DNA from: an uncultured bacterium
Lineage (GTDB): Bacteria; Krumholzibacteriota; Krumholzibacteriia; WVZY01; JAKEHA01
NCBI GenBank assembly: GCA_964588695.1
Contig: CAZPQK010000006.1
Coordinates: 196,239-260,238, forward strand
Length of the DNA: 64,000 nt
Reading direction: 5' to 3'
Part shown: piece by piece, positions 1-8,202 of the stretch
How the letters are laid out: every line of letters starts with the position of its first letter
Numbering within the stretch: the first letter of the stretch is position 1
The notes under the pieces: generated by a model
Database searches by the model: none
Told to the model about the DNA's origin: nothing
The model's input: only the letters and a program-made list of their open reading frames with translations
Translations under genes and position numbers: made by a program

Positions 1-25
1 CAATCGCGCGCCAGCTGGTGGAGCA

Positions 26-805
26 CTACGAACGCTCAACGAAGGCCAGAAGTTCCTCCAAGGGAATGCGGTCGTCGGCAGACGGCACGGGAAAAGTGAT
101 TGAGTGTTCCGACCCCGGTTGAGGCCACCAAGCATCTTCACCACTGAAGTGCAACTGATTCTCTCCGAGCCCGTGCCATGCCCACCACTTCTTGTCCGAG
201 GCTTTGTGAATTCCATGCAACGCTGGTAGCTGCTCTTTCTTCTTCGTGTTCTTCGGTTTTGACCAGTACCACTCAAAATCGGAAGGCTCAAACACGGTCG
301 GAGCGTCACGTGTGCAGAGAGAGCGTTCGAAGTAGGTTACTTCACTACCCGGGAACACGAGCAGTCGGCTGTAAACAATCTCATCGAGTTGATACTTCTC
401 CAAGCTCTCTTTCGCGTGGTTGTTGCAGAACGCCATGATCGAGTCACCCAGTCTTTGTAGCCCTTTAGCCCCTTTTCGCGACCCTTCGATCAGGCGATCC
501 GCATTCGGAATCTTGGCTCGTTTCCATGTTACGGGCGTGGAGGCCTTCGTCGACTTTACCTGCCAACCTGCTTTTTCCTTTTGGTTTATCACATCGACGA
601 AATCGTAGGTGTCAAGCACAACTCCGGAGCGGACTATGCTTAGCACGGCTTCCATCAACGCTCCGGGAATCACGTCTGATGAGAACGGAAGTCGCAAGTA
701 CCCGCCTAGAATCCGCTTGATGCGATCCAATTGATCGGATGAAGACAACTGTGTCATGCTATCTCGGAGTACGGAATAGCTCGGCGTATGAAACATCGAA
801 CGCAA
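26..805 (-). CDS. Putative restriction endonuclease (R gene of a C-protein-controlled R-M module); product assignment tentative
   Basis: 259-aa ORF lies immediately downstream of, and overlaps by 47 nt, a textbook R-M controller (C) protein gene. In known C-regulated systems the C gene precedes and overlaps the R gene. No methyltransferase motifs (no DPPY/FxGxG) are present, so an R role is more likely than M. Residues DTYDFVDVINQKEK are compatible with a degenerate PD-(D/E)xK core. Confidence 0.45.
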   Translation of the reverse strand: MRSMFHTPSYSVLRDSMTQLSSSDQLDRIKRILGGYLRLPFSSDVIPGALMEAVLSIVRSGVVLDTYDFVDVINQKEKAGWQVKSTKASTPVTWKRAKIPNADRLIEGSRKGAKGLQRLGDSIMAFCNNHAKESLEKYQLDEIVYSRLLVFPGSEVTYFERSLCTRDAPTVFEPSDFEWYWSKPKNTKKKEQLPALHGIHKASDKKWWAWHGLGENQLHFSGEDAWWPQPGSEHSITFPVPSADDRIPLEELLAFVERS

Positions 806-971
806 GAGCTAGATCGGCTATAATAGTGACTGTCGGATTTCTGATCCCACGCTCGATGCCGCTGATATAGGTGCGATGAAGCCCACTCCTGTGTGCGAGT
901 TCCTCTTGCGACCAGCCGCGTTTCTCACGGAGGCGTCGAACGTTGAAGCCAACGAGGTTTTTTACGTCCAT
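759..971 (-). CDS. Restriction-modification controller (C) protein, XRE-family helix-turn-helix
   Basis: 70-aa protein carrying the hallmark LHRTYISGIERGIRNPTVTIIADLA segment (compare DRTYISGIERNSRN in C.Esp1396I-type C proteins). Tandem C-box operators sit 25 bp upstream of its start. Confidence 0.8.
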   Translation of the reverse strand: MDVKNLVGFNVRRLREKRGWSQEELAHRSGLHRTYISGIERGIRNPTVTIIADLALAFDVSYAELFRTPR

Positions 972-995
972 TGCCCTAGATGATCACAGAGCGCA

Positions 996-1021
996 GACCA
1001 TTGGTCTACAGACTATGAGTC
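996..1021. promoter_or_regulatory. Tandem C-box operators: GACCattGGTC - TACA - GACTatgAGTC
   Basis: Two adjacent palindromes with GAC(T/C)-N3-(A/G)GTC symmetry separated by TACA (TGTA on the coding strand). This matches the classic C-box architecture (GACT-N3-AGTC x2 with a TGTA centre), located directly upstream of the C gene. Confidence 0.65.
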
Positions 1022-2095
1022 ACATTGGATAGGATCAGCCCACAGAGACGTAGAGCTCTTATGTCTAGTATTAGGAGCTCTGTGGCCCGTTTCACTCGGC
1101 AACGTGCGCTCGCGCCAGACAGCGGTGGCAATGACCTTGCCGTCCTTGTTTCGCGTAGGGAACAGCCACTCCGTGCCGGGGTAGGCTTGGTCCCCAATCG
1201 CTAGTGATTCCCGAACAAGCGCAACCATGTATTCCGACAACGGCAAGTCGAACGGTTCGCCGCGCTTCATTTTCGGGATCGATATCGCCTGGTCGTCCAG
1301 ATGGAGCCATTCGCGCCGGAGGGAGACGAGCGTGCCCGGGCGGAGGCCGCTGAACAGGCCCAGCGTGTGCATGACGCGGCGTAGGGGATTGGGCAACGCC
1401 TGGACCTTTGCGTACCACTCGGGCAGTTCGTCGGGCAGCAGGACGCGCCCGGCCGAGCGGACCTTGTTGAACGTCACGGCCTGGACGGGATTGCCAGGCA
1501 GCGCGTCCGGGTCGTCAACCACGCGCAACGCAAGGTTGTATGCGGCGCGGAACAGGCGCATGGTGTTATTGGCGACAGCCTTGCCGTGACGCGTTGATAT
1601 CGTGCGGTGTTTCTCCCGCGCCATCGTGCGGGTAACTTCCGGTATCGGCAGCGTCTTCCAGTGCCGCAGGTAGCGGTCGACCTGCTTGAACATGTCGTCG
1701 ATTGTCCGGTCCGCGCACTCGCGTGCACGCAGGTCGTTACCGTATTCCTCGAACATCTGCTCGACCGACCACGCTTCCGCACCCGACGCACGTGCAGTCG
1801 CGTTCGGGTCGATGCCGCGGCGAATTTCGTTGAGCACTTCGGTTGCCTTTATGCGCGCTTCGTATAGCTTGAGATCGTCCGTGGTGCCCAGCGTGCGGCG
1901 CACCGTCTTGACCTTGCGCCGTCGGCCGTATTCGCCGACCCACAGGTCGCGCTGCACCTTGTACGACTTCGTGTGTTTGTGTACGGCGATCATCAAGCCG
2001 CGCACTTCCGTGTCGCGTACGACAATCGGTTTGCCGTCGTAAACAAGACGGCGAATGAATGCTTCGGTGAGTTTCGTTGGTGGCATGCGTAGCAC
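1013..2095 (-). CDS. Tyrosine recombinase/integrase (P4-like, N-terminal arm-binding domain); appears 3'-truncated
   Basis: N-terminus (LTEAFIRRLVYDGKPIVVRDTEVRGLMIAV) is typical of the DUF4102/P4-integrase arm domain. LRPGT (box I arginine) is present. The ORF ends at ...RHKSSTSLWADPIQ, just after the degenerate H-x-x-R region and before the expected LLGH...Y catalytic tyrosine segment. The stop codon abuts the C-box region. Confidence 0.7.
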   Translation of the reverse strand: MLRMPPTKLTEAFIRRLVYDGKPIVVRDTEVRGLMIAVHKHTKSYKVQRDLWVGEYGRRRKVKTVRRTLGTTDDLKLYEARIKATEVLNEIRRGIDPNATARASGAEAWSVEQMFEEYGNDLRARECADRTIDDMFKQVDRYLRHWKTLPIPEVTRTMAREKHRTISTRHGKAVANNTMRLFRAAYNLALRVVDDPDALPGNPVQAVTFNKVRSAGRVLLPDELPEWYAKVQALPNPLRRVMHTLGLFSGLRPGTLVSLRREWLHLDDQAISIPKMKRGEPFDLPLSEYMVALVRESLAIGDQAYPGTEWLFPTRNKDGKVIATAVWRERTLPSETGHRAPNTRHKSSTSLWADPIQCDS

Positions 2096-2263
2096 TCCTT
2101 AGCGAACCGTGTTACCTGCACTTGCGAACCGTTTGCGAACCGCGGTACAATGGGTTGCTTGCGGGCTCGTGAGGTAATTATGCTCGTAAGTCCTTGAAAA
2201 ACAAAGACTTTCAAGGGTGCTTAGGGGGCTCCCGGGGGCTTGCGAGGGCTTCTTCTAATCTGC

Positions 2264-2296
2264 AGGTCCCAGGTTCGAATCCTGGCGGGGTCGCCA
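2264..2296 (+). other. tRNA 3'-half remnant (T-stem CCAGG / TTCGAAT / CCTGG, acceptor CGGGGTC-G-CCA); probable att-site copy
   Basis: A perfect T-arm plus 7-nt acceptor strand, discriminator and CCA are present, but no complementary 5' acceptor strand (GACCCCG) or anticodon arm can be found upstream. It is therefore a fragment, as expected for the direct repeat left when an integrase-bearing island inserts into a tRNA 3' end. Confidence 0.5.
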
Positions 2297-2426
2297 TTCT
2301 CCACACTCGCCCATAAACCACACCCAGTTTTCCTCTAGTCGGGAACCAACGGCGTCGTCGCTACGTTACCCATATATTGGCCCGTCTGACCGTCCCTGGT
2401 TCATAACAATAGTTAAGAGGTGTTCG

Positions 2427-3632
2427 ATGAAACGTCGCCACTGGATCAATTGCATCGTCGTGGCAATAGTCGCGGTTGTCGCGGGCAGTACAACCGCATG
2501 TCGCCAGTCCACTGCGGACCAGGCCGATATCGACGCGTTTGCGGCGGCCGTCGGTGATCTGGCCAAAGAAATCGGATTACCGGGTATGTCGGCCGCGATC
2601 GTAAGGGACGGAGAGATGGTTTGGTCGGCCGGGTACGGTCATGCCGATGTCGAGCGGAACATTCTGGCACGCGCGGATACCCCGTACCGACTGGCGTCGC
2701 TTTCCAAGCCGTTCGCCGCGGTTATCCTGATGCAGTTGATGGAAGAGGGACGCGTGGAGCTGGATGGGCCGATGCGTGATTTCGCGGTTCATGCTTGGTT
2801 TGAACCCGGAGGCGGTTCTTGGGCGCATTATCCGTCTCGCTATGACGACGGCACTATTACCGTCCGACACATTCTGACGCACACCAGTCAGTCGGAGCCG
2901 CCTGGGTCGGCTTATGCTTACAGTGGAAACATCTTCGGCGACCTCACGTGGGTGATCGAAGACGCAGCGGGTCAGTCGTATCCCGTTGCCGTCCGCGATC
3001 GGATCCTCAAGCCGTTGCAAATGAACCGCTCGTGTCCGGGGCAGCTTGCGCCGTGGTGCGATGAAGTTGTCGGTGCACTCGCAAAACCTTACGACATTTC
3101 AAACGACTCATTGGTGGCAGGTACCTACCCCGGTTTCGGAGTCGATTCCGACGCTGACGTCACTGCCTGGGGGCTTGACCCGGCCTATCGACTGCCCGCT
3201 ACCACCCAGGACGCTCGGCGGAAAAGGCTTGGGAGTTCGTTTACGAGATTGTTCTCGTCGCAGTCGGCCGCGGGGATGATCTCGTCAGTTGAGGACCTGG
3301 CCAAGTTTGACATCGCGCTCGACGGAAACCGACTTGTGTCCAAGCAAAGTCGCGAACTGATGTTTACTGCAGCGCGCACACCGGATGGCGACGAGTTGCC
3401 GTACGGTCTCGGATGGTTCGTGGAGGACAACGACGGGACGAAGTTGGTCTGGCACTACGGCTGGTATCCGCCGACAGTTTCTGCACTCTACATAAAGGTC
3501 CCGTCGCGGCGCCTGTCGCTGATTCTGCTGTCCAACTGCGACGGGCTAAGCGCCGGGGTGTCCTGGTCGGCGCTCGGCGTCAAAGCCTCGCCGTTTGCGC
3601 GGCTCTTCCTGGAGCACTTCGCGGGCAACTAA
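2427..3632 (+). CDS. Serine hydrolase, beta-lactamase (class C / PBP4-like) fold, probable lipoprotein
   Basis: S-x-x-K motif (SLSKPF) follows AYRLASLSKPFAA. N-terminal signal peptide ends near ...VAGSTTAC. A GGAG-like RBS (AAGAGG) precedes the ATG. Confidence 0.8.
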   Translation: MKRRHWINCIVVAIVAVVAGSTTACRQSTADQADIDAFAAAVGDLAKEIGLPGMSAAIVRDGEMVWSAGYGHADVERNILARADTPYRLASLSKPFAAVILMQLMEEGRVELDGPMRDFAVHAWFEPGGGSWAHYPSRYDDGTITVRHILTHTSQSEPPGSAYAYSGNIFGDLTWVIEDAAGQSYPVAVRDRILKPLQMNRSCPGQLAPWCDEVVGALAKPYDISNDSLVAGTYPGFGVDSDADVTAWGLDPAYRLPATTQDARRKRLGSSFTRLFSSQSAAGMISSVEDLAKFDIALDGNRLVSKQSRELMFTAARTPDGDELPYGLGWFVEDNDGTKLVWHYGWYPPTVSALYIKVPSRRLSLILLSNCDGLSAGVSWSALGVKASPFARLFLEHFAGN

Positions 3633-3704
3633 GGGCAGGCAGGCCCTCGGCGCCTGTCGCGTTTGTGATCCGTCGATAAAAATTCTTGGAACCTCCCGGC
3701 GGTG

Positions 3705-3725
3705 ATAGTTGTATCATACAACTAT
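3705..3725. promoter_or_regulatory. Perfect 10-bp inverted repeat ATAGTTGTAT-c-ATACAACTAT, candidate MarR operator
   Basis: The palindrome sits 12 bp upstream of the marR start codon and overlaps the likely promoter/RBS region. MarR-family dimers bind such dyads. Confidence 0.55.
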
Positions 3726-3736
3726 CAGGAGGAGCC

Positions 3737-4231
3737 ATGTCCGCACGAACCACCGATATCGATCTCGACCGCGACGCGGAAGAACTTCACGCCGCCGTCC
3801 GAAGCTTGCTGCGCATCTACCAATTCCGCGACCGGCAGCGGACCTGCTACCACGACATCTCGGTTACCCAATGCTACGCGCTAGAGGCCCTGCAGGGTGG
3901 CGCGTTGCGGTTACTGGAGATTGCCGAGGCGCTGAATCTGGAGAAAAGTTCGGCAAGTCGAATGATCGACTCGCTGGAGGACAAGGGGTATGTGCGCCGG
4001 GCGGCCGATCCCAGCGACGGGCGCGCGAGTGTCATCGACATTACGCGGCGCGGGCAGGCGCTTCACGACAACATTGTGGCCGCGCTGGTTGACGAAAAGC
4101 GCGAACTACTCGCCGGGGTCGGCAAGGCGTCGCGACGGGCGGCGATTCGAATTATCAACGAACTATCGCGCTCCGCTGCGGAGCGTTTTAGCGACGAGTG
4201 TGCGCTCACCGAATTCAAAGAAGGACGCTAG
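3737..4231 (+). CDS. MarR-family transcriptional regulator
   Basis: Winged-helix region (TQCYALEALQGG...LAEALNLEKSSASRMIDSLEDKGYVRR..DPSDGRASVIDITRRG) is the MarR signature. Start is chosen at the ATG preceded by AGGAGG (3724-3729). A longer upstream ORF lacks an RBS. Confidence 0.85.
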   Translation: MSARTTDIDLDRDAEELHAAVRSLLRIYQFRDRQRTCYHDISVTQCYALEALQGGALRLLEIAEALNLEKSSASRMIDSLEDKGYVRRAADPSDGRASVIDITRRGQALHDNIVAALVDEKRELLAGVGKASRRAAIRIINELSRSAAERFSDECALTEFKEGR

Positions 4232-4232
4232 C

Positions 4233-5588
4233 ATGAAAACGATTTTCGCCGCGGGTTTGCTATTGATTTGCGTCGCTCCGACGGCGACGCCGCAGGTTGC
4301 CGAATGTTCGGACGCGTGCACAGAGGGTGCGCACAAGAGTGCCGCTACCTGCGAGCCGACGTCTGCGGTTTGCGGCCCGGCGTCATCGGCGTGCGGGGTC
4401 GCCACATCGGTTTGCGGGCCGGGGCAATCGTGCGGGACACTTGCGACGTTCGGCGTCGATCCAGCGCGACGGGTGGTTGCGCCTCAAACCGCGGCCACCA
4501 CGTTGCCGTTCAGGAACCTGGCATCTCTAATCGAGCCGGTACGCGCAAGCTATCGCGTTCCCGCGTTGGCGGTGGCGGTGTCGCGAACCGACGGAGTGGT
4601 TGCCGCCGGTGCGACCGGCGCGCGTATCGCCGGACACCCGCAGTCGGTAACACCGTTCGATCGTTTTCACCTGGGGTCGTGCGGTAAAGCGTTCACGGCC
4701 ACCGTCGCCGCGCGCCTGGTCGCGGCGAATCAAATCCGCTGGGAAACTACCGTGGCGGATGCGTTTCCAGAGTTGGTTGCCGATAACAATCCTTATCGCG
4801 ACGTTACGTTGCAACAACTGCTCGCGCATCGCTCGGGGCTACCGACCCGGTCCAACGCGATGATGCACGAAGCGTTGGGCTACACTGGCGATGCCATCGC
4901 GCAACGCGTTGCGTTTGTACGCATGGCGTTGTCGCTTCCCCCGGCCAGCGAACCGGGCACGACGTTCGGCTACACCGATGTGGGTTACACCGTCGCCGGC
5001 GCGATGTTAGAACGCGCGGCCGGAACATCCTGGGAAGAGCTGGTGCGCGAACACGTGCAAGCGCCGTTGGGTCTCACGAGTCTGGGCTTTGGCGAACCGG
5101 CAACCTTTGGCGGCACCGATCAACCCTGGGGACACATCGCCGAAGGCGATCGCATGGTGCCGTTCACGCCGGGGCCCAGCGCGAACGACGACAACCCGCC
5201 GGTGATTGGCCCGGCTGGCCTGGTGCACTTGTCGGTGGTGGATTGGGCGCGGTTCGCGGCGGCGCATCTAAGCGGCGCGCGGGGAGAGTCGCCCGATTCG
5301 TTTTTGTCGGCCGACGCGTTTGGCGTTCTTCACGCCGATTCATACTCGCAGGGTTACAGTCTCGGTTGGGGTGTTCAAACCACGGATCGCGGTCGCGGGC
5401 TTTCGCACACGGGATCGTGCGGGGAGTGGTATTCGCTGATTTGGATTTTACCCGACGCCGATCTTGCTATCGTGGTAGCAACGAACATTGGCGGCGGCAA
5501 TGCGGTTGCGGCCGCCAATGAAGCGTTGCAAGTGGTACTGACCGAAATCGAACAAGCCCCGTCGGCACGCGCCGCAGCCGACCACTAG
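4233..5588 (+). CDS. Serine hydrolase (beta-lactamase-related) with Cys-rich N-terminal module
   Basis: S-x-x-K motif SCGKAF. Signal peptide MKTIFAAGLLLICVAPTATPQVA, followed by a roughly 45-aa segment with 9 cysteines. Starts 2 nt after the marR stop, so the two genes form an operon. Confidence 0.8.
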   Translation: MKTIFAAGLLLICVAPTATPQVAECSDACTEGAHKSAATCEPTSAVCGPASSACGVATSVCGPGQSCGTLATFGVDPARRVVAPQTAATTLPFRNLASLIEPVRASYRVPALAVAVSRTDGVVAAGATGARIAGHPQSVTPFDRFHLGSCGKAFTATVAARLVAANQIRWETTVADAFPELVADNNPYRDVTLQQLLAHRSGLPTRSNAMMHEALGYTGDAIAQRVAFVRMALSLPPASEPGTTFGYTDVGYTVAGAMLERAAGTSWEELVREHVQAPLGLTSLGFGEPATFGGTDQPWGHIAEGDRMVPFTPGPSANDDNPPVIGPAGLVHLSVVDWARFAAAHLSGARGESPDSFLSADAFGVLHADSYSQGYSLGWGVQTTDRGRGLSHTGSCGEWYSLIWILPDADLAIVVATNIGGGNAVAAANEALQVVLTEIEQAPSARAAADH

Positions 5589-5589
5589 C

Positions 5590-6315
5590 CTATTCGTACC
5601 AGGCGGCCAGTCGGACTTCGATGTTCGGGTTCTTTGCGACCAGCTTTTTGAACTGCTCGACGTCGCTAAACCCACCCGATCCGCGGTAGTGATACGGATA
5701 CACTACCTTCGGTGCAAACTCCAGCACCGCACTTGCCGCCTGCTCGACGGTCATGGTGTAGGGAAGATTCATACACACAAACGCGTAGTCGATGTTCTTA
5801 AGCGCACGCATCTCAGGAATGTCTTCGGTGTCGCCCGACACGTAGACGCGTTTGCCCTGGTAGTTAACAACGTAACCGTTGCCGCGCCCCTTGGGATGAA
5901 ACTTCAACCGCTCTTCGGTTAAGTTGTACATCGCCACTGCGTCAATCTTGACATCTCCGACGGTGCGCGACGCGCCGTTGGCCAGCGTCTCGCCCAACTC
6001 CAACCGCTCTTGCACCGCTGCCCCCGCAATGACGACGGTGTTTTCGCCCGCGAGTTCGTGCACTAGTTTCACGGCCAGGTGGTCGGGGTGAATGTGGGTA
6101 ATCAAAATAATATCCGGAGTACCAAATCGTTGAAAGCGCTCTGGGGATCCGACGGGATCGACCAGAATCATCGCGTCGCCGGCTTCAATTGCCAGCGTAC
6201 CGTGTTCGATGGGATGAAAGGTAAATGGCGCATCGCTGTGATGGTCGGCCACCACCCCGGCGGGGATGAGTGCGAACAGGCCTACGAGAAGTAGAGTGGT
6301 AAGTTGGCGGCTCAC
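5590..6315 (-). CDS. MBL-fold metallo-hydrolase, secreted
   Basis: HxHxDH motif (THIHPDH). Start is placed at a GTG preceded by AGGAGG (revcomp of 6321-6326). Signal peptide SRQLTTLLLVGLFALIPAGVVA. Confidence 0.75.
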   Translation of the reverse strand: MSRQLTTLLLVGLFALIPAGVVADHHSDAPFTFHPIEHGTLAIEAGDAMILVDPVGSPERFQRFGTPDIILITHIHPDHLAVKLVHELAGENTVVIAGAAVQERLELGETLANGASRTVGDVKIDAVAMYNLTEERLKFHPKGRGNGYVVNYQGKRVYVSGDTEDIPEMRALKNIDYAFVCMNLPYTMTVEQAASAVLEFAPKVVYPYHYRGSGGFSDVEQFKKLVAKNPNIEVRLAAWYE

Positions 6316-6439
6316 AGGTTCCTCCTGGTTGGATGTCACTATTGCTAGTAGATACCCCGCCGAGGCGGCGAGGTGTTCCTTTGTCACGCGTGGTCCACGG
6401 GTCGGATGACAGTTCGACAGCGCCCGAAAGCGCGACGAG

Positions 6440-6482: not shown

Positions 6483-7634
6483 CTAGTCTACCAGATTTAA
6501 CTTAGCCTCCAATTCGGCCAGGCGAGCCCGCAGTTCGGCTAGTTCGCTGCGAACATCGCCGCCCCGATTGATGGGCTGGCTCGATGCGATTGTCGGGCCG
6601 GGCTTGCCCAGGCTGGCCGCATCGGCATCTGGGCCATCAGTGGTTAGTTGCGGGGTAACGATCCCATAGGCGTTCTCAAAATAGATGAGGTTGAGCGTCC
6701 GGTCGCCGACACTGGCACTACCACCATTGCTACCTCGCTCCCCGTTCATGTAGAAAGTGTTGCTGCCGGCGGTAACGGGGTAAATTGCCTGCGCCGTGGC
6801 CGGAAACGTGTAGGTTCCGGAGCCGGCGTTGTCGGGTACCTGAACGATCATGGTCTGGTTGGTCGGCAGTGTGCTAGGCGAGGTCGATGTACCAATCCAA
6901 GCGTAAGTTGGCAATCCATTAGAGTGGTTCAGGAAAATGTGGCACGTCGCGATCGCTAGTACGTAACCATCTCCCGGACAGTTTATGTTTAGTGTAACCA
7001 GGTTGTTAATCGTGCCCGGCCCGGTAAGCCCGCCTGACGTTACGCCCTTTTGGCTCGCGACACCCGGGTCGTTGCCGCTGCCGCCACCTCCGGTCGCAGA
7101 TATCGTGATGTTGCTACCGCTAGGCACAACGGTCATGCCCGTGCCCGCTAGCAGGTTGACATTGTCGGTGAGGCCGTTCAGCGAGCGGATCGCGGTGCCA
7201 TTTGCCATCTTCGTTGATATCACGGCATTGTTGGCAAGCTTGTTAGTGGTAACCGTGCCGTCCTCCACGCTTAGCGCGTTGATCGCGTAAGGCGTGGCGC
7301 TTAGTTCCGTACGCGGCGTCATCTCCGGGTCTGCGTTTACGGTGATTCCCAGCCAGTACGGCTCGTCAAAGTTCACGGCGGTGAGCGGAATATTGCTACC
7401 CAATATCGCTTCAAAACGACCATTGGTAACTGGTAGATTCTGAAACTCCAACCAAATCGGCGAGCCTCCGGCCGCAACTGTGTAAAGACGAAACCCGAGT
7501 GAGTAGTTACCATCCGCCACCGGAGTTCCGGCGTTGTCGGTTAGTACTCCCTGGTAGGAAAACGTACGCGGCGGATCGGCGCTCGCCGGCAGTGCAACCA
7601 AAAATAAAACTAGAGCAGCGATGATGTATTTCAT
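6483..7634 (-). CDS. Secreted Gly/Thr/Asn-rich beta-rich protein, tail-fibre-like, with C-terminal coiled coil
   Basis: Signal peptide MKYIIAALVLFLVALPASA. Low-complexity G/T/S/N repeats. C-terminal ELAELRARLAELEAKL heptads resemble phage tail-fibre / S74 chaperone-type ends. Confidence 0.55.
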   Translation of the reverse strand: MKYIIAALVLFLVALPASADPPRTFSYQGVLTDNAGTPVADGNYSLGFRLYTVAAGGSPIWLEFQNLPVTNGRFEAILGSNIPLTAVNFDEPYWLGITVNADPEMTPRTELSATPYAINALSVEDGTVTTNKLANNAVISTKMANGTAIRSLNGLTDNVNLLAGTGMTVVPSGSNITISATGGGGSGNDPGVASQKGVTSGGLTGPGTINNLVTLNINCPGDGYVLAIATCHIFLNHSNGLPTYAWIGTSTSPSTLPTNQTMIVQVPDNAGSGTYTFPATAQAIYPVTAGSNTFYMNGERGSNGGSASVGDRTLNLIYFENAYGIVTPQLTTDGPDADAASLGKPGPTIASSQPINRGGDVRSELAELRARLAELEAKLNLVD

Positions 7635-7668
7635 TGGAATAGTCTCCGAGTTCCGGTTTGAGCTGTGG

Positions 7669-8202
7669 TTACTTCAAGAGCACGAGTTTGCGCGACGTCA
7701 CAAAGCCAGGTGCTTCGATGCGGTAGAAGTACACGCCGCTGGCCAGTGAAGAGCCGTCGAACGGCACAACGTAGATGCCGCCGGGGCGCGATTCATTAAC
7801 TAACTCCGCAACCTCCGCACCGTTCACGTCAAAGATGCGAAGAACAACATGCGATTCTCGCGGCAACGCAAACCGAATCGTTGTTGTGGGGTTAAACGGG
7901 TTCGGGTAGTTCTGGTCCAGGCGAAATGTCTGCGGGAGAAGAGGGTTGTCACCGATGCTGGTTGGAAAGTTGCCCGGAGGTTCCCAAAATCCGTTAAGCG
8001 ATCCAAAGTTGGTGCTAGTGGCAGAGCCGATGGCCGCCTGACCGGCGGTTCCTAGTATCTGGTAGTTAGTACTCGAAGCGGTCGTCGCGCCGCTTGACGC
8101 AACTTGCTTCTGTAAACTGGTTTGAGCCGAAGTCAATCGAGGCGGAGCTACAAAGACCATAGCCAGGACAACGGTCAACCATAGGCCAGGGGGTGTTTTC
8201 AT
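7669..8202 (-). CDS. Small secreted protein with T9SS type-A C-terminal sorting domain
   Basis: Signal peptide. C-terminal LDQNYPNPFNPTTTIRF...GVYFYRIEAPGFVTSRKLVLLK is the canonical Por-secretion CTD. Confidence 0.8.
   Translation of the reverse strand: MKTPPGLWLTVVLAMVFVAPPRLTSAQTSLQKQVASSGATTASSTNYQILGTAGQAAIGSATSTNFGSLNGFWEPPGNFPTSIGDNPLLPQTFRLDQNYPNPFNPTTTIRFALPRESHVVLRIFDVNGAEVAELVNESRPGGIYVVPFDGSSLASGVYFYRIEAPGFVTSRKLVLLK

Follow-up and report, generated by a model that had tools for sequence, protein, structure and literature searches.

In the PvuII restriction-modification (R-M) system, a small helix-turn-helix controller (C) protein with an HRTY recognition helix is encoded directly upstream of the restriction endonuclease gene (R) and in the same orientation, under an operator of the form GACT-N3-AGTC-TGTA-GACN-N3-NGTC. 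The TGTA spacer of such operators correlates with C proteins of the HRTY type (PMC2175313), and leaderless CR transcripts have been described for PvuII and others. In Esp1396I, the C-R operon and the methyltransferase gene (M) are convergent, and C binds to two sites at the promoter of C-R and, as one dimer, to a single site at that of M, where it represses M; an intergenic bidirectional terminator lies between R and M, and there is a conventional leader with a Shine-Dalgarno sequence. As for the nucleases, the ThaI / HinP1I / MspI group of PD-(D/E)XK Type II endonucleases is among the closest known systems, and non-acidic residues at the (D/E) position of this fold are known, for example serine in ThaI and NgoMIV. 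Genomic islands integrated in tRNA genes with P4-type integrases, which have Arm-DNA-bind_3 and Phage_integrase domains, are bounded by the tRNA gene at one end and by a copy of its 3' half at the other.

The window analysed here is a stretch of 64,000 nucleotides from an uncultured bacterium. Taking its left end together with the adjoining DNA, window positions 1-1025 very probably represent the right-hand two thirds of a complete three-gene Type II R-M system, composed of C, R and a convergent cytosine-5 methyltransferase gene M, which is carried as cargo by a tRNA-Arg(TCT) islet that later underwent an internal deletion. To judge from its genes, this is an R-M system with a controller protein of a kind ordinary for bacteria, and apparently an intact one. 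The likeness to PvuII lies in the C protein, in its position and orientation with respect to R and in the operator, whereas that to Esp1396I lies in the convergence of the C-R operon and M, in a single C-box at the M start and in the C protein itself, C.Esp1396I (E 3e-10) being one of the nearest C proteins of solved structure. Unlike in Esp1396I, R and M overlap here, the C start has no obvious leader and the C-R operator follows the PvuII pattern; between the two systems, the enzymes are unrelated. The islet resembles the tRNA-integrated islands in its tRNA-Arg(TCT) gene, its 3'-half repeat and its integrase domains, but it is only 4.04 kb long, its cargo is essentially one R-M system, and its integrase ends after residue 338, without the tyrosine nucleophile. 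The coordinates of the features are collected in Table 1.

Table 1. Features at the left end of the window (window positions; strand relative to the sequence as presented).
Feature	Position	Strand	Description
3' end of cognate cytosine-5 DNA methyltransferase gene (M)	3..122	+	Last 39 codons (IARQLVEHY...ECSDPG), TGA stop 120-122
Restriction endonuclease gene (R)	26..757	-	243 aa from ATG 757, stop at 26-28; family without curated model
Controller (C) protein gene	759..971	-	70 aa, HTH_3 fold, HRTY recognition helix
Stretch between proximal C-box and C start codon	972..995	-	24 nt; presumed -10 region of C-dependent promoter
Tandem C-boxes (operator)	996..1021	-	Distal box GACTCATAGTC 1021..1011, spacer TGTA 1010..1007, proximal box GACCAATGGTC 1006..996
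Truncated P4-type tyrosine integrase gene	1013..2086	-	Homology from 2086 down to 1082 (...LPSETGH); stop 1015..1013
Probable 5' remnant of vsr (very-short-patch repair endonuclease) gene	1025..1081	+	19 codons, TTG-DRISPQRRRALMSSIRSS; divergent from C, cut off at deletion junction
3' half of tRNA-Arg(TCT) gene	2252..2297	+	Anticodon loop to acceptor end; right-hand repeat of islet

A first-pass annotation, made from the letters of the window alone, had proposed a module under C-protein control, with a 70-aa controller ORF downstream of tandem C-boxes. The ORF is present as described and contains HRTYISGIERGIRNPT, and several comparisons argue for its role as a controller. Its product matches HTH_3 in Pfam (E 2e-19), its best matches among PDB sequences are C.BclI (3.9e-12), C.AhdI (2.5e-11) and C.Esp1396I (3.4e-10), and the five best PADLOC models are all 'Control_protein' (3.4e-16). 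It is a small single-domain XRE/HTH_3 protein within the range of ~70-100 aa, nearest to known C proteins, as is typical of the PvuII-like group, and it shows the HRTY/TGTA pairing of that group, with HRTYISGIERG in the ORF and TGTA as the spacer of the operator. Its stop codon occupies 759-761, so that the start of R lies one base past it. C is immediately upstream of R in 50 of the 69 loci compared (68 other genomes and this locus), and co-transcription of the two genes is predicted. An exact look-up of the C sequence retrieved two short contigs only. In the public annotation of the long contig the C gene has not been called.

On the forward strand the C-boxes read GACCATTGGTC (996-1006), TACA (1007-1010) and GACTATGAGTC (1011-1021); on the coding strand the operator, GACTCATAGTC-TGTA-GACCAATGGTC, ends 24 nt ahead of the C ATG, and not 25 as first reported. 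It fits the published consensus GACT-N3-AGTC-N4-GACT-N3-AGTC without mismatch, and over its first 18 nt it does not differ from the symmetrised PvuII C-box (GACTCATAGTCTGTAGAC... / GACTCATAGTCTGTAGACTCAAAGTC). A degenerate double-box pattern occurs once in the 64 kb even when two mismatches are allowed, and in none of 100 shuffles. Of 54 relatives, 37 also have the element ahead of C, compared with 2.2% of random windows, and its distance to the C start is 21-27 nt in most relatives. Thus, the closest solved C proteins, the PADLOC models and a PvuII-type operator conserved in relatives together point to control of the module by the C protein, as had been proposed. The -10 region of the C-dependent promoter is presumed to lie between the proximal box and the C start codon, and the C-R mRNA may be leaderless; the -10 and -35 assignments were made by eye. 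A strict sigma-70 scan of window positions 1-1200 returned no promoter site, and none between the C-box and the C start might be expected, because the promoter would be activator-dependent.

The nuclease gene had been described as a 259-aa ORF. Such a frame does exist (26..805, with a TTG start), although it is only the mechanical maximum, and the start that fits the homologues is ATG 757, matching 35 homologues of 241-251 aa, which most likely makes the protein 243 aa long. In the public annotation of the long contig R has been shortened to 209 aa, 34 codons short. No match to R was obtained in Pfam (searched with the sequence alone or with 36 family members), NCBIfam, PADLOC, PDB sequences (as single sequence and as profile) or plasmids, and a Foldseek search of the PDB produced no significant hit. 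Neither the 243-aa protein nor the 209-aa public version led to a contig in exact-sequence look-ups, and none of the homologues in species-representative genomes is 100% identical. The family itself is large, with at least 875 homologues, and extends over many phyla, being present in 68 other species-level genomes. R keeps all 61 invariant columns of the family. Among them, E36 is placed in a helix, D52/D55 just before a strand and Q66-V-K68 in the middle of the next strand, which is the arrangement described for the PD-(D/E)XK fold, except that the (D/E) position is occupied by Gln. R is therefore likely to be a nuclease of the PD-(D/E)XK type, with E36, D52 or D55, and Q66-x-K68 as its catalytic residues, an assignment that is provisional, given the Gln in place of the acidic residue of (D/E)XK. 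It has also been considered that the 243-aa protein could be a methyltransferase partner of another sort (for instance a nuclease that nicks or acts in repair, one that depends on methylation, or a specificity or accessory factor) and not a classical restriction enzyme. We regard this as improbable. R, with its likely nuclease fold, provides the separate endonuclease expected of a Type II R-M system. Regarding specificity, a guess at the recognition site of the restriction endonuclease from palindrome under-representation in 61.7 kb of host sequence yielded no palindrome that stands out, the lowest being CAGCTG (0.55, z -1.5) and AATT (0.66).

It had been reported that no methyltransferase was in view, and that the gene either lay beyond the left edge of the window or was missing, in which case the nuclease would be a lethal orphan unless inactive. 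The first statement does not strictly hold, since a cytosine-5 methyltransferase gene ends inside the window, with the 39 C-terminal residues and the stop codon at positions 3..122. This tail follows motif X and contains no recognisable motif, and therefore it was invisible to a reader without tools. The expectation of a gene past the edge was right. A public contig extending leftwards (L011), which was reached via a neighbouring beta-lactamase-family gene, matches the window letter for letter across 13,632 nt, although it belongs to a separate assembly and is not the window's own record. It carries the whole M gene at 6488..7696 (window -1086..122), 1.09 kb of which lies beyond the left edge. 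The 402-aa product matches PF00145 and TIGR00675 dcm (E 7e-49), and FCGCGG, PPCQGFS, ENV, QRRKR and GNAVPP are legible in it, so that motifs I, IV (PCQ), VI, VIII and X are all present. The nuclease gene is thus adjoined by a methyltransferase gene with a complete catalytic motif set, as in Type II R-M systems, and R overlaps its 3' end by 97 nt (26..122), in antisense. For each of the M, R and integrase proteins, the longest recorded contig measures 270,285 nt and comes from NCBI, which is consistent with a single record.

The proposal of an orphan, according to which a C-R operon has lost its methyltransferase and the nuclease is inactive or the arrangement lethal, drew on the fact that no methyltransferase motif is visible inside the window. 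One relative (L048) does carry an R homologue without M or C within 4 kb, and orphan copies may exist elsewhere. At this locus, however, the full-length methyltransferase lies directly to the left of R and ends inside the window, and none of the residues that are invariant in the family has been lost from R. Consequently, the proposal carries next to no credence and is refuted for this locus, unless L011 is a chimeric assembly. On the contiguous sequence there is no lethal orphan nuclease, because the methyltransferase gene straddles the left edge, with all but its last 39 codons outside the window; the "missing" gene is an artefact of that edge, which removes the apparent paradox.

A single C-box, TACTATGAGTC, is located at L011 6484-6494, outside the window, where it overlaps the M start and a -10-like TACTAT. 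As a 14-nt match present in two copies, this box could be due to chance in this locus alone, and it gains weight because it is conserved in relatives: in 23 of 65 loci a degenerate single-box pattern lies within the 120 nt that surround the M start, compared with 3.8% of random windows, these loci being mutually related and not independent. As in Esp1396I, M is convergent here and has one C operator at its promoter, and repression through this operator is suggested by analogy.

Taking PvuII and Esp1396I as models, the following sequence of events can be proposed. On entry into a naive cell, M would be transcribed from its own promoter and the genome would be methylated, while C would be made slowly from a weak promoter. 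The first C dimer would then occupy the distal box, activating the C-R operon, and at high levels of C the proximal box, which would overlap the promoter, would also be filled, capping expression. Since the third, single C-box overlaps the -10-like TACTAT at the M start, C would probably turn M down as well.

The gene order is shared with many relatives. M is convergent in 58 of the 69 loci, and the overlaps between R and M fall into classes of 4-18 nt and 79-103 nt, this locus belonging to the latter. A vsr gene is present near the module in 12 of the 69, and in the six of these that were inspected it lies immediately upstream of C and points away from it; the intact Vsr genes of relatives match PF03852. 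In this locus a full-length Vsr domain (PF03852) is absent and ~19 N-terminal codons are left, which align in register with the N-termini of the Vsr proteins of relatives. With the Vsr HMM this fragment ranks 3rd of 2047 window fragments, with an E of 0.6, which by itself falls short of significance. No specific account of a system of this type, combining C, vsr and a cytosine-5 methyltransferase, came up in a literature search.

The integrase that faces this remnant is also incomplete. It matches Arm-DNA-bind_3 in Pfam, and Phage_integrase only over profile positions 3-105 of 172. Its homologues are 397-432 aa long and cover 93% of the query. In the alignment, homology stops after ...ETGH338. 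Missing are the arginine (R) of HxLRHT, the LLDH motif and the tyrosine of GVYIH, so that the full tyrosine-recombinase catalytic set (R, K, H-x-x-R, H/W, Y) is lacking; beyond the end of homology the frame runs on for a final 23 codons (1081..1016), through the vsr remnant and into the C-box. A deletion at ~1081/1082 has cut off the catalytic end of the integrase and, probably, most of vsr. Beyond the integrase, an intact tRNA-Arg(TCT) gene outside the window (L011 5752-5828) and its half-copy, situated 4,042 nt to the right, are linked by a 46-nt direct repeat that is 76% identical and shows compensating T-stem changes (L011 5784-5829 and 9826-9871, with the same spacing of 4,042 nt). ARAGORN detected no complete tRNA in window positions 1-6000, and the tRNA-like 3' half was recognised only through the repeat search. 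As in genomic islands, a tRNA gene lies at one end and its 3' part is repeated directly at the other, and on this evidence a 4.04-kb islet has inserted in tRNA-Arg(TCT) with the R-M module as its cargo. The earlier suggestion that the module is probably mobile holds as far as its residence in such an islet is concerned, but not for the adjoining integrase, which has lost the second catalytic Arg, the His and the Tyr nucleophile; therefore, the islet is no longer self-mobile.

These truncations could also be read as signs of decay, the deletion in vsr and the integrase marking an islet on its way to loss, with R-M expression already off. The integrase without its catalytic C-terminus, a vsr of ~19 codons, the small size of the islet (4 kb) and public gene calls on the long contig that miss C and shorten R would agree with this. 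Nevertheless, the C, R and M frames are open and full length relative to their homologues, the C-boxes are without mismatch, R keeps its invariant residues and M all its motifs, the deletion ends 60 nt short of the operator, and the loss of M or C ahead of R would be counter-selected, all of which makes a decaying remnant very improbable. It is proposed instead that, in an otherwise complete system, a later internal deletion would have taken the 3' ends of the vsr and convergent integrase genes, fixing the islet in place and leaving C, R and M untouched.

Knowledge of how such R-M systems work is unchanged by this locus, and the public gene calls are corrected with respect to the short R and the uncalled C. 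Beyond this, it can be suggested, tentatively and with some doubt, that R is the founder of a widespread, never-characterised family of Type II restriction enzymes without a Pfam, NCBIfam, PADLOC or PDB relative, whose specificity is possibly new. The family would perhaps be governed by a C regulon of three promoters, in which tandem boxes activate and then repress C-R, and a single box lies over the -10 region of M and another over that of the divergent vsr in loci that have one. A large restriction-enzyme family without a curated model, provided with a ready-made regulatory signature, may be of interest for enzyme discovery and for R-M annotation pipelines.

The methyltransferase of this R-M system, which the first-pass annotation had either placed past the left edge of the window or considered missing, is indeed located past that edge. 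The leftward extension is L011, a public 45-kb Logan contig reached via a neighbouring beta-lactamase-family protein (window 2427..3632). It matches the window base for base over the 13,632 nt that they share (subtracting 7574 from an L011 position gives the window position), and it encodes a cytosine-5 methyltransferase, M. This protein matches TIGR00675 'dcm' (E 7e-49) and the PADLOC model MTase_II (E 3e-98), its PDB relatives include DNMT1, M.HaeIII and M.HhaI, and the motifs DLFCGCGG, GGPPCQGFS, ENV, QRRKR and GNAVPP are readable in it. The gene ends at window 122 (stop at 120..122) and, therefore, window 3..119 encodes the final 39 residues of M, antisense to the 3' end of the nuclease gene R, with an overlap of 97 nt. 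For M, R and the integrase alike, the longest contig on record is one of 270,285 nt from NCBI, which fits their coming from a single NCBI record. Thus, the proposal that R could be a lethal orphan is refuted by M, and the apparent anomaly of a missing methyltransferase is a product of the window boundary. At the sequence level, the predicted system is in every respect of Type II.

Features of the R-M system and its islet (window positions unless L011 is named)
Feature	Position	Strand	Remarks
tRNA-Arg(TCT)	L011 5752-5828		left of M
Islet ORF	L011 6044..6439 = window -1530..-1135		100-131 aa; between tRNA-Arg and M
Third C-box (candidate)	L011 6484-6494		reads TACTATGAGTC; overlaps annotated M start
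M gene	L011 6488..7696	+	METHYLTRANSFERASE, 402 aa, PF00145
R gene	26..757	-	243 aa, ATG 757
C gene	759..971	-	70 aa, contains HRTYISGIERGIRNPT
Tandem C-box operator	996-1021		+ strand reads GACCATTGGTC-TACA-GACTATGAGTC
vsr remnant (probable)	1025..1081	+	TTG-DRISPQRRRALMSSIRSS; between integrase homology end and C-box
Integrase ORF	1013..2095	-	Arm-DNA-bind_3 match

The reading of the 70-aa ORF as an R-M controller protein is borne out, since C matches Pfam HTH_3 (E 2e-19), its closest solved-structure relatives are C.BclI (3.9e-12), C.AhdI (2.5e-11) and C.Esp1396I (3.4e-10), and its top five PADLOC models are all 'Control_protein' (5/5). The tandem C-boxes proposed upstream of it hold as well: on the C-coding strand the operator reads GACTCATAGTC-TGTA-GACCAATGGTC, with 24 nt from its end to the ATG of C, and a degenerate double-box pattern (<=2 mismatches) occurs once in 64 kb and in 0 of 100 shuffles. 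The C-box consensus is GACT-N3-AGTC-N4-GACT-N3-AGTC, the symmetrised PvuII operator is GACTCATAGTCTGTAGACTCAAAGTC, and the HRTY recognition helix of C proteins pairs with a TGTA spacer (Mruk et al. 2007, PMC2175313). This HRTY/TGTA pairing is present here, and the first 18 nt of the PvuII operator are common to the window element. The likeness to PvuII lies in the operator and the C type and, judged by sequence, C has every trait predicted for a PvuII-group C protein. Among the relatives, a double C-box (up to 3 mismatches over 12 specified positions) precedes C in 37 of 54 loci, usually with 21-27 nt between it and the start codon, as compared with 2.2% of random 120-nt windows drawn from these loci; binomial p-values for this and the single-box count below overstate independence because the loci are kin to one another. 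Despite this kinship, the double C-box is an intergenic element kept at 46-64% protein identity, which speaks for a function.

A repeat search (family D4) paired the candidate third box, at the M start, with the distal C-box (1011-1021; ACTATGAGTCTCAT vs ACTATGAGTCACAT), a pairing that alone is within chance. In many relatives, (T/G)ACTAT(G/A)AGT(A/C) stands at the M start or shortly before it, in many cases 16-19 nt past a TTGAC-type hexamer, and the single-box pattern KACY-N3-RGKM, counted within 120 nt around the M start, is found in 23 of 65 loci vs 3.8% of random windows. The first six bases of the M-start box, TACTAT, are -10-like. If this is the -10, M would start at its second ATG (L011 6497), with 399 aa, which fits the 398-399 aa of the relatives, and its mRNA would be nearly leaderless. 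C bound to this box would occlude the M promoter, following the logic demonstrated experimentally for Esp1396I, in which the C-R and M units are convergent and one C dimer binds at the M promoter (PMC2691842). The likeness to Esp1396I concerns the gene layout and the M-promoter C site, a candidate site here.

The mechanical ORF for R (26..805, TTG start) had been taken, at 259 aa, for the restriction nuclease. However, 35 homologues (241-251 aa) begin aligning at the Met of ATG 757, one base past the C stop codon, and the C and R genes of relatives either adjoin or share up to 4 nt; R is therefore the shorter product, so that the former length falls. The nucleases listed in the fold comparison are SfiI, BglI, EcoRV, MutH, SwaI, Sau3AI, PvuII and NaeI. 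Foldseek gave no significant match, that of highest probability being again ThaI (probability 0.51, E 0.11), and the predicted PD-(D/E)XK-type fold is therefore a moderate call, not a strong one. R retains 61 of 61 invariant alignment columns, with E36 within helix 32-42, D52/D55 directly ahead of strand 56-58, and Q66-V-K68 midway along strand 63-71, all of them invariant. A Q-x-K variant is present in HinP1I too. Provisionally, E36, D52/D55 and Q66-V-K68 of R occupy the catalytic places of the fold, as laid out for ThaI (PMC3025569), and form a putative catalytic set with Gln at the (D/E) position, where non-acidic residues are documented (Ser in ThaI and NgoMIV; PMC3025569). Palindromes in the host portion of the window, tested for avoidance, gave no pointer to the recognition site. 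Public gene calls over window 26..971 (L011 7600..8545) look wrong: R is called as 209 aa from Met35, losing an N-terminal helix with invariant residues, and C lacks a call on the long contig, its exact sequence being on record from just two Logan contigs, both short.

The neighbourhoods of three R homologues read vsr(<-) C(->) R(->) M(<-, PF00145). When species-representative genomes were scanned, 69 candidate loci came up, spread over many phyla, among them Nitrospirota, Chloroflexota, Acidobacteriota, Cyanobacteria, Gemmatimonadota, Verrucomicrobiota and several Proteobacteria classes. L081, a locus without a usable R match, was left out; the other 68 and L011 make up the 69 loci of the following counts. 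A convergent cytosine-5 M lies directly downstream of R in 58/69, M is otherwise arranged in 7 and undetected in 4 (3 at contig ends), C is directly upstream of R in 50, and vsr is present in 12. The R/M 3' overlap measures either 4-18 nt or 79-103 nt, and that of the window is typical of the longer class. In seven loci, mostly Acidimicrobiia MAGs (L044, L064, L066, L068, L071, L077, L079), M has no more than 41-46% identity and precedes R instead of being convergent downstream of it, and several lack a C gene; this subgroup is an alternative architecture of the R family. A Rickettsiales MAG (L048, JAITCH010000003.1, 4001..4714) carries a full-length R homologue (55% identity), with methyltransferase, C and vsr all undetected within 4 kb either side, possibly a genuine orphan or the partner of an unrelated methyltransferase.

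Integrase homologues (397-432 aa) cover 93% of the window ORF and place its start at the Met at window 2086. The ORF matches only positions 3-105 of 172 of the Phage_integrase profile, and homology ends past ...LPSETGH338, at window 1082, where relatives go on ILRHT...LLDH...GVYIH; the ORF therefore lacks the second catalytic Arg, the His and the Tyr nucleophile. Window 1025..1081 can be aligned in register to the N-terminal ends of Vsr proteins encoded divergently upstream of C in relatives (e.g., MDRVNKETRSKVMSAVRSKGT) and ranks 3rd of 2047 window fragments with a Vsr HMM, but at E 0.6; it is probably a vsr remnant. A single deletion, with its junction at ~1081/1082, would explain both truncations. 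Two short nested inverted repeats, CCACAGAG/CTCTGTGG (1040-1047 and 1078-1085) and AGAGCTCTTA/TAGGAGCTCT (1052-1061 and 1072-1081), have right arms spanning this junction, and may have mediated the deletion or be coincidental. In relatives with divergent vsr (L013, L017 and others), the vsr start codon is inside the distal C-box or a few nt from it (GCCTATGAGTAACATT... in L017), and window 1011..1027 keeps this arrangement (GACTATGAGTCACATTGG), which mirrors the box-plus-ACAT(G) at the M start, so C may control vsr too.

GC content is ~52% over window 1-1050 vs 60-65% over the integrase gene. The 3' 46 nt of tRNA-Arg(TCT) (L011 5784..5829) recur with 76% identity at L011 9826-9871 (window 2252-2297). 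The match begins at the anticodon loop, CTTCTAA, which suggests a crossover site there. The T-stems of the copies differ by compensating changes (GAAGG/CCTTC vs CCAGG/CCTGG); therefore, each derives from a functional tRNA gene of its own, one islet-borne and the other native. The 4,042-nt unit between the repeats comprises, in order, the islet ORF, M, R, C, the vsr remnant and the truncated integrase gene. The module had been considered probably mobile; the islet was formerly mobile but, with its integrase so truncated, is now fixed. The islet ORF (…LVEPYVHGV…GWKLFVV…) found no match in Pfam, NCBIfam or PADLOC and resembles, by eye and without tool support, a WYL-like domain. Directly right of the islet, two beta-lactamase-family (PF00144) genes flank a MarR-type regulator gene (2427..5588), followed by a metallo-beta-lactamase-fold gene (5590..6387(-)); these genes (2427..6387) are host context, unrelated to the R-M system.

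The R-M system departs in nothing from the known kind. R has at least 875 homologues at E<=1e-3 and gave no match in Pfam (for R itself or for each of 36 members of its family), NCBIfam, PADLOC, PDB sequences (single sequence or profile) or plasmid records, which places it outside every named family. The remaining value of the finding is a widespread family of predicted restriction enzymes without prior characterisation.
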